From a virus: a stretch of DNA of 64,000 nt. A model generated the notes under the pieces. It was given only the letters and a program-made list of their open reading frames with translations, was not told where the DNA came from and did no database searches. The position numbers and the translations under genes were made by a program. Shown here piece after piece: positions 7,928 to 10,294 of this stretch (position 1 is the stretch's first letter; each line of letters starts with the position of its first letter). The DNA is taken from the IMG/VR virus record IMGVR_UViG_3300035210_000132, positions 92,596-156,595 of that record; one strand, written 5' to 3'.

Positions 7928-8410
7928 ATGAGAAGTGAGGCCCAAGCTAAGTTATTTGCTAAGGGTCGTCGGAGATGCACACGCTGCAAGAAACCTAAAC
8001 CACTTTCGGACTTCGGGACCCACAGAAATAGTTATCACAGTTGGTGCAAATTATGTCAAGCAGAAGACCAAAGGCAACGTAGGGCCAGTGATCCAGGCAA
8101 AGCCAGGGAGATAGCTAAAAGGTATCGAGTAAAGTGGATACGGAAGGTAAAAGAACTAATCGAAGAGGCTAAGAATAAACCATGTGCTGATTGTGGGCAA
8201 AGGTTTCCACCGTGCGTGATGGACTTTGATCATGTGGATCCAAGTCTAAAGAAGATCTGTGTTGGGCGCATGATGCATCAAACCTGGTCAGTAGAGAGCA
8301 TCAAGGCAGAGATGGCAAAATGTGAGGTTGTCTGTTCTAACTGCCATCGAATCCGTACGTGGATCAAGGGACGAAGGAGAAGACCGAATGGACCTAACAC
8401 AAAAGATTAA
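7928..8410 (+). CDS. HNH endonuclease (free-standing homing-endonuclease-like)
   Basis: Zn-finger CxxC pairs plus 'MDFDHVDPSLKK...CSNCHRIRTW' HNH motif. Confidence 0.7.
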   Translation: MRSEAQAKLFAKGRRRCTRCKKPKPLSDFGTHRNSYHSWCKLCQAEDQRQRRASDPGKAREIAKRYRVKWIRKVKELIEEAKNKPCADCGQRFPPCVMDFDHVDPSLKKICVGRMMHQTWSVESIKAEMAKCEVVCSNCHRIRTWIKGRRRRPNGPNTKD

Positions 8411-8828
8411 CGTGCTGAACTCAGGCTACGTCCAGTACATTGGGAGCATGGGCTCTGATGAAGACATCATCAGCGCCGCCCGCATGTCCACCGGCAAGGG
8501 CTTCCTTGGCTGGACCTGGGAGGAAGACACCTGGGCCGATAGTATCTGCTTCGGGTGCCGGACCCAGCACCTCCTCGCAAGTCTGCCGATCGACGAGGAC
8601 AGAGATCTGCCTGTTTGCACCAACTGCTGGTCCTCGGACGTGAAGTGGATCGAAGGAGGATCAGGACTGCACCTAGAGCCTAAGCTCCTCGGCAAGGAGG
8701 GCCAGCCCAGAGACCTGAGCCTCTTGGAGTTTCTATACTCGAACCGCCACAGCACCCCCTTCGAGATGGGTGAGCTGTGCATCGAGGTCAAGGCTCCCAT
8801 CATGGTCTTCCGAGAATGGCATCGTTAG
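8388..8828 (+). CDS. thyX: FAD-dependent thymidylate synthase ThyX, exon 1. The ORF stops at 8826 (TAG) right after the conserved '...VFREWHR'.
   Basis: 'AARMSTGKGF' and 'KAPIMVFREWHR' match ThyX consensus regions up to the first half of the RHR motif. Confidence 0.6.
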   Translation: MDLTQKINVLNSGYVQYIGSMGSDEDIISAARMSTGKGFLGWTWEEDTWADSICFGCRTQHLLASLPIDEDRDLPVCTNCWSSDVKWIEGGSGLHLEPKLLGKEGQPRDLSLLEFLYSNRHSTPFEMGELCIEVKAPIMVFREWHR

Positions 8829-9679
8829 ATACTTGTGTTTTGACTTTTGTCGTGCTAGTGTAGAATCTCCAATAAGGAGACTTCTATGATCAAGGACAGC
8901 ACTGCCATCGATGGAACACCAATCTCTGAACTCAGTCCTGGAAGCGAGAGGAAAGTCATTCTCGTATGTGACACTTGCGGAAAAGAGACAATCACAGGTT
9001 TCTGCAACTACACGCACGGTCAACACCCAGGCAGGAACGGAGAAACGTTCTGCAAGTCTTGCGCTACTAAGAAGAGCGGTTTTGCTAAGAGAGGAAAACC
9101 GATCAAGGCCGTTCCGAGAAAGTCTCGGGCCGACAGAAGCCACCTCTGGAAGGGCGGAAGATTTGTTGGATCGGATGGGTACGTTCAAGTGTATCTCGGA
9201 CCCAAGAAGTATCGTAAAGAGCACTTCTTGGTGATAGAGGCATCTCTTGGACGTCTTCTGCAAGATGGGGAACGTATTCATCACATCGATGGAAACAAGC
9301 AGAACAACTGGCTCTACAACCTGGATCTGATGACATCAGAGTCAGAGCACCGAGATGCCCATAATTCACTCTACGAGTGGGCGTGCTACTTGGTGAGGGT
9401 CGGTTTGATCAGCTACGACAAAAGCAGCCACAGATACTATATGGCGATGGATAAACTCCGTGAATTGCTGGGACAGCCTGAAGAGGCCAATCAGCAGCCA
9501 AGCTTGAGCGGCGACGCTCTTGAAGGTTCAACGACTAGGTGATGAGTCTCTCTGAGATGATAATTCACCCACGAGCGCGGAGCAGCAGGACAGCCTGCTG
9601 ATGAGATAGTCTGACCCACGTGTATAACAAGACGAAGACGTGGAACCGTCGGATAAAGAGCCGGCGGGATAACAGCGTG
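8826..9679 (+). mobile_element. Group I intron interrupting thyX, carrying an HNH homing endonuclease ORF
   Basis: Exon 1 ends in U (8825) and the intron ends in G (9679). Joining 8825|9680 restores '...FREWHR|HRTQSYNELSARY' (ThyX RHRxxSxNExSxRY). P7-like 'aggagact'...'gagatagtctga' elements are present. Confidence 0.6.
8886..9542 (+). CDS. HNH homing endonuclease (intron-encoded)
   Basis: 'CDTCGK...CKSCATKK' zinc finger and 'HHIDGNKQNNWLYNL...HRDAHN' HNH motif. RBS 'aaggag'. Confidence 0.75.
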   Translation: MIKDSTAIDGTPISELSPGSERKVILVCDTCGKETITGFCNYTHGQHPGRNGETFCKSCATKKSGFAKRGKPIKAVPRKSRADRSHLWKGGRFVGSDGYVQVYLGPKKYRKEHFLVIEASLGRLLQDGERIHHIDGNKQNNWLYNLDLMTSESEHRDAHNSLYEWACYLVRVGLISYDKSSHRYYMAMDKLRELLGQPEEANQQPSLSGDALEGSTTR

Positions 9680-10294
9680 CATAGGACGCAGTCGTACAAC
9701 GAGCTGTCTGCGCGATACACGCAGATGCCCAACGAGCACTACATCCCAGAACTAGGGCGCATCCAGAGACAGTCGCTCACAAACAAGCAGGGCTCTGGTG
9801 GTAGCTTCCCACCAGAAGAAGCGGCCAACTTCATCGGAAGGCTCGAAACCGCGCAGCAAGAGATCTACTCTGACTATGATGAATTTGTCAGGAAGGGGAT
9901 CGCCAAGGAGGTGGCTAGGATCAACACCCCGGTCTCGCGCTACTCGAAGATGCGGGCCAAGACGGACCTCCGAAACTGGCTCTGGTTCCTGGGCCTCCGC
10001 ATGGAGAAGGGCGCCCAGTGGGAGATCCGGCAGTACGCCAATGCCGTAGCCAGCATCATCAAGAAGCTCTGGCCCAAGACGTTCGACCTCTTCATCGAGC
10101 ACGACTTTTTGTCAGTCAGGTTCTCCAGGTCGGAGATGGATGCCCTGCGCAAGCTCCTGGGCAAGATCACCAGAGGCTTCATGACCGACGAAGTGCCCAT
10201 CGCTGATCCCAAGAAGCGGCAAGCCTTCCTGGATAAGCTGATGGCACCCAAGGAAGACGACTACAAGGACGTTCTCACCAAGCTCGGCTACTAG
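9680..10294 (+). CDS. thyX: ThyX exon 2 (annotated ORF 9620-10294)
   Basis: 'HRTQSYNELSARY...VARINTPVSRYSKMRAKTDLRNWLWFLGLR...EIRQYA' matches the ThyX C-terminal half. Confidence 0.6.
   Translation, partial: HRTQSYNELSARYTQMPNEHYIPELGRIQRQSLTNKQGSGGSFPPEEAANFIGRLETAQQEIYSDYDEFVRKGIAKEVARINTPVSRYSKMRAKTDLRNWLWFLGLRMEKGAQWEIRQYANAVASIIKKLWPKTFDLFIEHDFLSVRFSRSEMDALRKLLGKITRGFMTDEVPIADPKKRQAFLDKLMAPKEDDYKDVLTKLGY

Follow-up and report, generated by a model that had tools for sequence, protein, structure and literature searches.

Background

Mobile elements of several kinds have been described in thymidylate synthase genes. In the td gene of T4, RNA structure restricts translation of the intron-encoded nuclease I-TevI, and a stop codon in the exon frame is found near the 5' splice site. 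The td and thyA introns are inserted at codons for conserved catalytic residues, as cited in PMC8541194 and PMC3984707. For Vibrio phage pVa5, a group I intron with an HNH ORF was published in 2017 in a thymidylate synthase gene (PMC5746245); the joined exons of that gene match Pfam Thy1 with an E value of 8e-45, which identifies it as thyX. In Alteromonas phage vB_AmaP_AD45-P1 (NC_021532), a comparable intron was not recognised in the original paper (PMC3821669). Other elements also reside in thyX, namely an intein and a group II intron in Trichodesmium erythraeum (Liu and Yang 2004, as cited in PMC4649490) and inteins in the ThyX of mycobacteriophages (PMC5050341). Free-standing phage homing endonucleases, including T4 seg/mob and F-CphI of cyanophage S-PM2, are presented in PMC2790892, PMC2988022 and PMC6083498 as small genes between or overlapping conserved genes, sporadic in distribution, odd in composition and spread together with their flanks by double-strand break repair. 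The combination of thyX, a group I intron and an HNH gene is already known in kind, published for pVa5 and unrecognised in the AD45-P1 paper; in the literature, no paper was found in which a group I intron is explicitly assigned to thyX.

The window considered here is a 64,000-nucleotide stretch of a viral genome (IMG/VR record IMGVR_UViG_3300035210_000132), and all features described lie on its plus strand. From sequence comparison, we place a probability of about 0.9 on the following account: thyX would carry a mobile IA-type intron with an HNH gene in the loop of P1, and a foreign HNH gene would have entered upstream together with a replacement thyX start.

An interrupted thyX that reads as one protein

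Exon 1 of thyX (8388-8825) comprises 146 codons, the last of them CGU, whose U8825 is the 5' splice-site uridine. Its ORF has the C-terminal sequence ...KAPIMVFREWHR at 8825 and meets TAG at once (8826-8828). Exon 2 (9680-10294) holds 204 codons and a stop; it opens with CAU AGG, the His-Arg of the RHR motif, and reads ...HRTQSYNELSARY from 9680. The initial annotation had proposed that the two be joined at U8825/9680, and its coordinates for the exons, the insert and both HNH ORFs all hold on re-checking. Joined, the exons encode a 350-aa ThyX (Pfam Thy1, PF02511, E 5.5e-39) in which the RHRxxSxNExSxRY motif, interrupted between its first Arg and the His, is restored over the junction as RHRTQSYNELSARY. 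The junction peptide of the spliced protein is predicted to be EWHRHRTQSYNELSAR, and the ligated-exon RNA is predicted to read ...GGCAUCGU/CAUAGG... (slash, junction). Alignment of the two ORFs to separate proteins in relatives, named in that annotation as the outcome that would speak against a single gene, was not seen: intronless homologues align without a break at 62% identity and 100% coverage, and solved ThyX structures (PDB 6j61, 1o26-type) are colinear with the joined protein across the junction. ThyX matches with 58-70% query coverage were considered as exon-2 ORFs and rejected, as they proved to be intact short ThyX without the Cys-rich insertion.

The group I intron and its guide sequence

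The insert (8826-9679, 854 nt) begins with the in-frame UAG and ends with the omega-G, G9679, which is kept in 7/7 introns and bears out the earlier remark that the intron ends in G. The search with Rfam Intron_gpI (RF00028) that had been suggested gave a match at 9361-9634 with 60.0 bits, above the gathering score of 50, and an E value of 1e-12. Since it is also the sole match in the whole 64 kb, chance is excluded as its source. With no P2 and an ORF in L1, the 5' third of the model fits badly, which leaves the score just 10 bits over the threshold.

The internal guide sequence (9440-9449) pairs with both exon ends. In P1, GCGAUG (9444-9449) pairs with CAUCGU of exon 1 (8820-8825), with a U8825-G9444 wobble; in P10, UAUG (9440-9443) pairs with CAUA of exon 2 (9680-9683). 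The 6-bp P1 is fully paired in 7/7 introns and covaries with exon changes at -3 to -6, the exon/guide variants being CACCGU/GCGGUG, AUCCGU/GCGGAU and GUGCGU/GCGCAC. P10 measures 3-4 bp across the introns, and its CAUA/UAUG becomes CACA/UGUG in the locus L088. An early candidate for P1, CGU/UAG with CUAGUG at 8855-8860, was dropped in favour of the guide at 9444-9449, which pairs perfectly and covaries in all seven.

A gene that is truly split, whose fragments are translated apart and then assemble around a free-standing HNH gene, would be another way to read the locus. T4-like phages offer precedents in genes split by a homing endonuclease gene (HEG) with separately made halves, such as nrdA/mobE of Aeh1. 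The equivalent locus of AD45 was likewise treated as truly split in its genome paper (PMC3821669). This reading has to face the Rfam group I matches here and in relatives, as well as P1 and P10 helices whose pairing reaches the exact exon ends and covaries with them. Moreover, at 9680 exon 2 has neither a start codon nor a Shine-Dalgarno sequence, the closest start before it is a GTG at 9620 inside P9, and the break falls between adjacent residues of the active-site motif. A truly split thyX is, in our judgement, extremely unlikely.

Ribozyme core and subgroup

The intron reading gains further weight from the predicted ribozyme core (9456-9667, P3 to P9.1), which was derived from an alignment of the related introns. 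Its helices are P3 (9456-62/9576-82), P4 (9466-71/9491-96), P5 (9476-79/9484-87), P6 (9497-99/9525-27), P6a (9503-10/9515-22, closed by a GNRA loop), P7 (9531,9533-37/9607-12), P7.1 (9538-41/9566-69), P7.2 (9546-50/9554-58), P8 (9583-89/9594-9600), P9 (9616-21/9638-43) and P9.1 (9646-52/9661-67). The P7-like elements mentioned in the initial annotation now have a defined place within this covarying core. Including the P3/P7 pseudoknot, there are 63 pairs in 11 helices, and 92.8% of the alignment cells are paired, a percentage inflated by the derivation of the helices from the same sequences on which they are scored. Slid helices were paired at 34-43%, none of 500 shuffles reached the observed value, and 25 pairs changed on both sides; the slid controls and the compensatory changes argue against an artefact in the proposed pairing. 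P7.1 varies among U-A, C-G and A-U, and P7.2 has three compensated pairs. In the scheme that Michel and Westhof reportedly set out in 1990, extra P7.1 and P7.2 helices between P7 and P3' define subgroup IA. With both helices predicted, the thyX intron is classed as an IA-type group I intron. No P2 helix, a usual element of IA2 phage introns, was found in the space between guide and P3, which is just 3 nt plus AAA.

The modest Rfam score and the missing P2 could suit an intron that has decayed and lost splicing, leaving thyX as a pseudogene in this phage. That reading is highly unlikely, given that the core helices, the U-G wobble, the omega-G and the GNRA loop are all intact and covarying, that each exon is open with a native-like GC3 of 76-81% and 60-65% identity to functional-looking homologues, and that the intron's own nuclease ORF is whole. 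Taken together, the sequence comparisons support the identification of the 854-nt insert as a group I intron, presumably self-splicing.

A nuclease gene that runs through the ribozyme

The HNH gene that had been noted within the intron (8886-9542) encodes 218 aa, and its product matches Pfam HNH_3 at residues 113-153 (E 8e-8) and phrog_19902 (E 2e-20). The pattern HH..G/D...N..NL....H...H is kept in 7/7 of the HEG proteins. By its HNH domain and its distribution, the product qualifies as a putative homing endonuclease, with cleavage predicted. As the guide sequence lies about 620 nt downstream of the end of exon 1, the gene falls inside the P1 loop rather than in a peripheral one after the core. 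Its final 103 nt (9440-9542) double as the P10/P1 guide and as P3 to P7.1. Identities at the three codon positions are 60/65/34% before the overlap and 85/86/82% within it, and this test shows an RNA-level constraint on the ribozyme-overlapping part of the gene.

At the other end of the gene, a hairpin (8859-8888) is predicted to pair the Shine-Dalgarno sequence GGAG (8876-8879) and the AUG (8886-8888), with a folding energy of -11.7 kcal/mol and a z score of -3.2. Equivalent start hairpins occur in L085 (z -4.2), L086 (z -3.5) and L091 (z -2.3), which gives a Shine-Dalgarno hairpin in 4/7 introns; among the other three, L088 and L090 start at GTG or TTG.

Related introns, empty sites and mobility

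Six related thyX introns were found, all at the same site as 8826-9679. In every HEG homologue locus inspected (L085, L086, L088, L090, L091, L181 and one ENA contig; 44-80% identity), a Thy1 fragment stands on either side of the HEG, at exactly the same codon position, and Intron_gpI scored above the gathering value in 5/5 of the related introns tested (50.5-59.7 bits). The same-codon intron is present in seven hosts whose ThyX proteins are 35-62% identical. In 21/21 pairs the nucleases resemble each other more closely than the ThyX proteins of their hosts do; in one of them the HEG products are 79.8% identical, the ThyX proteins 60.5% and the ribozymes 94.6% at the nucleotide level.

Empty sites were recorded in L001, in L003 and in 80 IMG/VR loci. 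The comparison with intronless alleles that had been proposed shows L001 thyX to be contiguous exactly at the predicted junction (empty-site sequence ATGGTCTTCCGAGAATGGCATCGTCACCGGATGCAGTCG), with the 24 nt upstream of the junction identical to those of the present phage. The conserved junction of intronless thyX alleles reads ...TGGCAYCGT/CAYMG.... A single-protein scan of IMG/VR found no relative, and an alignment-based scan of the same resource yielded the 80 thyX loci, none of them split. By exact match, no intronless allele of the same lineage appeared in JGI metagenomes or IMG/VR. A thyX-specific pattern of guide plus P3 gave 0 matches in metagenome_contigs; L088 (JGI) does fit it, which means that the sample is absent from that collection. 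In INPHARED phages, no DNA-level match to the locus was obtained outside the ribozyme core.

A second HNH gene at the thyX start

The free-standing HNH gene (7928-8410, 160 aa) that had also been pointed out is confirmed by a match to phrog_2255 (E 8e-34), its protein having no Pfam match. It was described as lying just upstream of thyX and overlapping its 5' end. The overlap, of 23 nt with the live thyX start, is real, and the 3' end of the HNH gene even holds the thyX Shine-Dalgarno sequence AAGGAG (8374-8379); the position needs revision, for the gene appears to have been inserted within the ancestral 5' end of thyX, with a relic of the old start before it and a diverged replacement start after it. 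Its GC content of 47.0% is the lowest of any 460-nt window in the 64 kb and falls within the bottom 0.2% of windows, and its GC3 is 45% against 75-81% in the flanks. The gene was not seen beside thyX in L001, L003 or the 80 IMG/VR loci. Its homologues reach at most 55% identity and adjoin thyX in 2/5 contexts inspected, the three others lying elsewhere; the search did not yield the exact protein. On these features it would be a free-standing homing endonuclease, for which both cleavage and spread are predicted.

The putative relic of the original thyX 5' end (7860-7931) consists of 23 codons (MTMSMKEKFDLTEKIPVLDHGYS) and a stop. Its protein sequence aligns with the N-termini of relatives' ThyX, and its DNA with the start of thyX in L001 and in L003. 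It overlaps both neighbours in an ATGA, at 7860-7863 (its own ATG and the stop of the preceding ORF) and at 7928-7931 (its own TGA and the ATG of the HNH gene). Its GC3 of 82% is native-like. The live start at 8388 is a diverged copy of the same 13-14 codons, in which DH has become NS at what may be the target of the nuclease: a HEG-free start of the L001 or L003 type reads ...GTTCTCGACCACGGTTATGTTCAG..., and the recoded copy of the present phage reads ...GTGCTGAACTCAGGCTACGTCCAG....

One could see in the relic a chance likeness or an unrelated small leader ORF, with the HNH gene simply intergenic and upstream of thyX. Just 14 codons are alignable, the E value of 3.3e-4 comes from a short HMM (14 columns, built from relatives' N-termini), and neither L001 nor L003 has a homologue of the upstream 123-aa ORF that could anchor synteny. 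Against this, the relic is the best match among 128,000 six-frame residues of the window, ahead of the live N-terminus (E 0.35), and it lies on the correct strand, abutting the HNH gene. It is also closer than the live copy to the family consensus VLDHGY, and its start overlaps the upstream stop as the thyX start of L003 does. A chance likeness is regarded as unlikely.

Hardly credible, by comparison, is a second intron at 7926-8429, whose removal would join 7860-7925, as 5' exon, to the sequence from 8430 on and which would make the HNH gene intron-encoded. The idea draws on the end of the relic at GGCTAC, a hexamer found again before GTCCAG at 8424-8429, and on the good ThyX N-terminus that joining 7925 to 8430 would yield. 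It was rejected on the lack of any RNA family match (Rfam) in 7700-8600, even at an E value of 10. The supposed 5' exon has C, not U, as its last nucleotide, and an intron would not account for the second, complete thyX start within the interval, with its Shine-Dalgarno sequence and its diverged version of the same 13-14 codons. In L205, furthermore, a 47%-identical HNH homologue overlaps an intact thyX start without any upstream exon.

Proposed mechanism and significance

The thyX intron resides in a large tRNA-rich phage. Its sequence shows a P1 with the U8825-G9444 pair, a conventional P3-P9.1 core, the omega-G at 9679 and a short P10 aligning exon 2; self-splicing with a guanosine cofactor would then ligate the exons and allow full-length ThyX to be made. 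A ribosome on exon 1 would stop at the UAG formed by the intron's first three bases, and translation of the HEG may be held low by the hairpin over its Shine-Dalgarno sequence and AUG. Since the guide sequence and P3-P7 are part of the HEG frame, translation of the HEG and folding of the ribozyme would be mutually exclusive on one RNA molecule. The HNH protein may cut the intronless thyX of co-infecting phages near the conserved junction, and repair of the cut would copy the intron in, which is homing. At the 5' end, the foreign-composition HNH gene would have arrived with a replacement thyX start (Shine-Dalgarno sequence, ATG and about 14 codons), leaving the first 22 resident codons stranded upstream as a relic now coupled to the HNH start through ATGA. 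The most likely origin would be intronless homing from an L205-like donor, with an HNH gene overlapping the thyX start and an illegitimate left junction.

These findings point to a family of at least seven environmental members, together with two cultured-phage cases, in which a group I intron occupies ThyX active-site codons, in parallel with the classic thyA (td) introns of an unrelated enzyme. Such loci have been taken for "two thymidylate synthase genes" by annotation pipelines and by at least one genome paper. The nuclease ORF, sharing about 100 nt with guide and catalytic core, offers a clean natural example for studying conflict between translation and splicing, and the relic and duplicate at the second HNH gene would be a rare visible footprint of a free-standing nuclease entering a coding region. 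Whether this is a recurring strategy, in which an intronless homing endonuclease invades a coding sequence, brings a replacement start recoded at its likely target and uses the stranded start as a coupled leader, is doubtful; if true, it would be a third route, besides introns and inteins, by which a nuclease gene can sit harmlessly within an essential gene.

Comparison with known systems

The published system of pVa5 is similar in that a group I intron, positive in Rfam and containing an HNH ORF, interrupts a thymidylate synthase gene of the phage. Its HNH protein is 32% identical to the present HEG product, and its split adjoins the ThyX motif (…PIRTQ / KHKVGFSENEESRRY). Its host, by contrast, is an N4-like podovirus whose ThyX is far more divergent; the 19-nt core string of the present intron is missing, and no upstream free-standing HNH gene is reported. 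The paper, moreover, names the gene td and compares it only with the T4 and beta22 thyA introns (PMC5746245). In AD45-P1, the thyX fragments gp091 and gp088 flank an HNH protein 31% identical to the present one, and Intron_gpI matches with 105.7 bits, overlapping the 3' end of the HNH gene. The HEG tail ...GELL..P...GNQQPS is the same and the P3-P4 string AAACTGGGTGAATTGCTGG is closely similar, whereas a second nuclease gene (GIY-YIG) lies in the 3' part of the AD45-P1 intron. For AD45-P1 and pVa5, inspection by eye did not locate P1 or the precise splice sites.

The introns of T4 td (I-TevI) and of beta22 and B. mojavensis thyA (I-BmoI) are likewise mobile, of group I and located in genes for phage thymidylate synthases. 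The restriction of I-TevI translation and the exon-frame stop in td also have counterparts in what is predicted for the present intron. Their host gene, however, is thyA, which encodes a folate-dependent enzyme with a fold unrelated to that of ThyX, and their nuclease is of the GIY-YIG type, unlike the HNH type of the present HEG. The td nuclease ORF is placed in a peripheral loop (P6), whereas the present one lies in L1 and reads through the core.

In its ribozyme core the intron belongs to the same family as the DNA polymerase introns of SPO1- and Bastille-like Bacillus phages, which encode the HNH nicking enzymes I-HmuI and I-BasI. Over 135 nt, the core shares 71-73% identity with sequences of Bacillus phage Smudge and its relatives, where the match lies between two DNA polymerase fragments and is accompanied by an HNH gene. 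The 19-mer AAACTCCGTGAATTGCTGG was matched exactly in 110 IMG/VR stretches, only one of these 110 cores being in thyX, and the core is also found in a crAss-like dUTPase intron and a Vibrio phage primase/helicase intron. The SPO1- and Bastille-like introns differ in host gene and guide sequence, and in Smudge the HNH ORF is 3' of the P3-P7 match.

Trichodesmium erythraeum likewise presents thyX as a repeated target of self-splicing mobile elements, although the classes are different (intein and group II intron) and the setting is a bacterial chromosome. In contrast to T4 seg/mob and F-CphI, the present upstream HNH gene appears to lie inside the coding sequence of its neighbour, which would be kept intact by a diverged duplicate of its first ~14 codons. 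No phage description of an HNH gene in a coding sequence with a duplicated start was found in the literature. The closest analogue is the mitochondrial atp6 hybrid gene of Allomyces macrogynus, in which a nuclease ORF came with a foreign gene end that displaced the resident one.

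An intron-split thyX gene

The thyX gene of the window opens on the forward strand at ATG 8388, with AAGGAG 8 nt upstream, and its first exon (8388-8825) ends in ...KAPIMVFREWHR before an in-frame TAG at 8826-8828. The frame resumes at 9680 with HRTQSYNELSARY... and continues to a stop at 10292-10294. The initial annotation had placed a split at 8825|9680 with 854 nt between the exons, and these coordinates hold, the joined exons matching Pfam Thy1 with an E value of 5.5e-39. The predicted spliced product has 350 aa and matched thousands of ThyX proteins in a homologue search, the best of them with 62% identity over 100% of the length, on phage-like contigs of 90-215 kb. 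The homologue alignment is continuous over the junction (...MVFREWHR|HRTQSYNE...), and solved ThyX structures likewise align across it. In the intronless relative L001 the gene is uninterrupted and contiguous at the proposed junction, and the 24 nt upstream of this point are identical in L001 and the window (ATGGTCTTCCGAGAATGGCATCGT|CAC...). Relatives' ThyX aligns through the junction and the L001 gene is unbroken, so the refuting outcome, in which each of the two frames would match a protein of its own in relatives, did not occur. The window, L001 and a second intronless relative, L003, have neighbouring genes in common: a Dam-like methylase gene upstream and rIIA/rIIB-like genes downstream.

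The insert occupies 8826-9679 (854 nt, forward strand), is preceded by U and ends, as initially annotated, in G. The Rfam model Intron_gpI matched 9361-9634 with 60 bits, above its gathering score of 50 and as the sole such match in the window, in support of the proposed group I intron; five of the related introns also pass the threshold. Contexts were fetched for homologues of the intron-encoded HNH gene (HEG) in L085, L086, L088, L090, L091 and one ENA contig without DNA, and in every one, from 80% down to 48% identity, Thy1 fragments flank the nuclease; the same arrangement is found in the IMG/VR contig L181 (44% identity, global alignment). The insertion point is identical in all seven loci with DNA, the window included, lying after a CGT (Arg) and before a CAY (His) codon, and the insert measures 832-885 nt with a terminal G in 7/7. 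On this sequence evidence, the split thyX and its intron are real and the first interpretation is correct, with splicing predicted. The intron and its nuclease form a lineage specific to thyX, always at the RHR codons, which is of some specialist interest.

The ThyX of the window and its closest relatives also carries an insertion of about 65 residues with a CxxC...CxxC pattern (8505-8708, ThyX residues ~40-107; Cys codons at 8547-8558 and 8616-8627), absent from many other homologues and from all solved ThyX structures. It looks like a zinc ribbon.

Ribozyme core and guide

Core helices were drawn on an alignment of the 3' parts of the seven introns, comprising P3, P4, P5, P6, P6a, P7 (pseudoknot), P7.1, P7.2, P8, P9 and P9.1. 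Standard pairs make up 92.8% of cells, with both-sided changes in 25 of the 63 pairs. Not one of 500 shuffles reached the observed core pairing, which fell to 34-43% when the 3' partners were shifted by 1-3 columns. The P6a loops are of the GNRA type (GCGA, GUAA, GAAA) atop wholly different stems, and P7 switches from A-U to G-C among related introns. By the definition of that class, the presence of the P7.1/P7.2 pair makes this an IA-type intron. No P2 helix was found in the intron.

The guide GCGAUG (9444-9449) pairs perfectly with the exon sequence CAUCGU (8820-8825), the wobble being U8825-G9444, and the relatives' exons CACCGU, AUCCGU and GUGCGU are matched by guides GCGGUG, GCGGAU and GCGCAC, respectively. 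Directly 5' of the guide, UAUG (9440-9443) pairs with exon 2 CAUA to form P10, for which L088 has CACA/UGUG. The guide stands three bases plus AAA ahead of P3, far from the 5' end of the intron, and therefore the HNH gene fills the P1 loop.

A nuclease gene written over the ribozyme

The HEG is an intact 218-aa ORF at 8886-9542 on the forward strand, and its annotation as an HNH gene inside the intron is confirmed by matches to Pfam HNH_3 (E 8e-8) and phrog_19902 (E 2e-20). Its frame runs through the guide, P3, P4, P5, P6 and P7 to a UGA at 9540-9542 in P7.1; in relatives the ORF ends 54-159 nt beyond the start of P3. In pairwise comparison, identity upstream of the guide is 60/65/34% for codon positions 1/2/3, the signature of a protein; within the overlap it is 85/86/82%, the signature of an RNA. 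The HEG, seated in the P1 loop, has about 100 nt in common with the guide and catalytic core, a matter of some specialist interest; overlap between nuclease ORFs and intron cores has been described before (review PMC3984707, Fig. 2b). Separately, the dUTPase gene of the crAss-like phage cr50_1 (MT774375, 26739-28178) is split by an intron with an HNH ORF whose 3' end overlaps a core with 86% identity over 78 nt to that of the window; the ORF-over-core layout is therefore common to very different phages.

An in-frame stop (UAG, UAA or UGA) forms the first three intron bases in five of the seven members, and in the other two a stop follows within 9 codons. The HEG has both its AUG and its Shine-Dalgarno sequence paired in a hairpin at 8859-8888 (-11.7 kcal/mol, z -3.2). 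Hairpins of different sequence cover the Shine-Dalgarno in L085, L086 and L091, that of L181 lies just upstream without covering it, and L088 and L090, whose start codons are GTG or TTG, have no hairpin. Translation of the nuclease would be held down in this way, and HEG translation and ribozyme folding may be mutually exclusive on one RNA molecule.

Probable mobility and spread

The intron is missing from L001, L003 and 80 IMG/VR thyX loci, and its GC content, at 49.6%, ranks among the lowest 2% of windows. In 21/21 pairwise comparisons, similarity is higher for the nuclease than for the host enzyme, which fits homing between diverged thyX genes; between the window and L085, identity is 79.8% for the HEG, 60.5% for ThyX and 94.6% (nt) for the ribozyme. 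The ribozyme core is a member of a family widespread among phages. In IMG/VR, 110 stretches contain the exact 19-mer AAACTCCGTGAATTGCTGG, a single one of them in thyX, and the core can also be made out in Bastille-like Bacillus phages (DNA polymerase intron), a Vibrio phage (primase/helicase intron) and the crAss-like phage above (dUTPase intron). The IMG/VR stretch L121 has the 19-nt string twice (2214-2232 and 2547-2565, 333 nt apart), which may reflect tandem or twin introns.

A second HNH gene and a probable thyX relic

The upstream HNH gene (7928-8410, forward strand, 160 aa; phrog_2255, E 8e-34) shares 23 nt with the thyX start. As 7700-8600 gave no RNA family match even at E 10, the gene is free-standing. 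Both points stood as first annotated; what had been missed is its location, apparently inside an old thyX. At 47.0%, its GC content is the lowest of any 460-nt stretch in the 64 kb, and its GC3 is 45% against 75-81% in the flanks. Directly before it lies a relic (7860-7931) encoding MTMSMKEKFDLTEKIPVLDHGYS*, which aligns with ThyX N-termini and comes closer to the family consensus IKVLDHGY than the live N-terminus (MDLTQKINVLNSGY) does. When its SIGNIFICANCE was judged by a 14-column HMM of relatives' N-termini, searched against the window translated in all six frames, the relic ranked first (E 3.3e-4) and the live thyX start second (E 0.35). The start codon of the relic (ATG) overlaps the stop codon of the ORF before it, like the thyX start in L003, and its stop codon (TGA) overlaps the HNH gene's own ATG. 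By our own count, 12 of 39 bases differ between relic and live copy over 13 shared codons.

In L205, an unrelated contig, a 47%-identical HNH gene overlaps the start of an intact thyX without a relic; for three other homologues, thyX is not among the neighbouring genes. For this single instance we favour, at roughly 70%, a segment of HNH gene plus thyX start copied in from a diverged donor, with the resident start stranded. Break repair would have copied the donor segment, with homologous resolution within thyX and an illegitimate left junction, leaving the first 22 resident codons behind. The relic and duplicate would then be the footprint of the second HNH gene's entry into thyX, which is of some specialist interest.

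L001 has a distant homologue of this HNH gene (12095-12265), with 40% identity across 60 aa; it lies some 5 kb downstream of thyX and has other genes on either side. In L063 (IMG/VR 3300012231_000246, 2291-3538), a second partial ThyX C-terminal copy (residues 249-284) follows an intact thyX after about 380 nt and may be a further duplication linked to a nuclease.

Other features of the window

About 29 tRNA genes lie in dense clusters at 18611-39886, all on the forward strand and several with long variable arms (33995-35449), suggesting a large phage unusually rich in tRNA genes. Within this region, an 883-aa ORF (30710-33361, forward) matches PF11978, the shoulder domain of Major Vault Protein (E 7e-28), and has a weak match to a vault repeat; such a protein is unexpected in a phage. 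The reverse-strand ORF 3182-4621 encodes an ATP-dependent DNA ligase with an N-terminal LigD 3'-phosphoesterase domain.

Comparison with known systems

Group I introns with homing nucleases are classical in phage nucleotide-metabolism genes, as in T4 td, nrdB and nrdD; further cases are beta22 thyA and the genes for DNA polymerase in SPO1 and Bastille. For thyX itself, a literature search turned up no paper that names such an intron. Such introns already exist in two cultured phages. Vibrio phage pVa5 was described with a group I intron and HNH gene in its "thymidylate synthase (td)" gene (Katharios et al., 2017, PMC5746245), and the comparison made there with T4 and beta22 implies thyA; however, its joined exons (KX889068, 46878-48287) match Thy1 (E 8e-45), so the host gene is actually thyX. 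The second is Alteromonas phage AD45-P1 (NC_021532, 66479-68744), whose genome paper took the locus for a pair of thymidylate synthase genes accompanied by free-standing nucleases (PMC3821669). A strong group I intron (Intron_gpI, 105.7 bits) interrupts thyX there and houses two nuclease genes, HNH and GIY-YIG, between the thyX fragments; the HNH gene is 31% identical to the HEG of the window.
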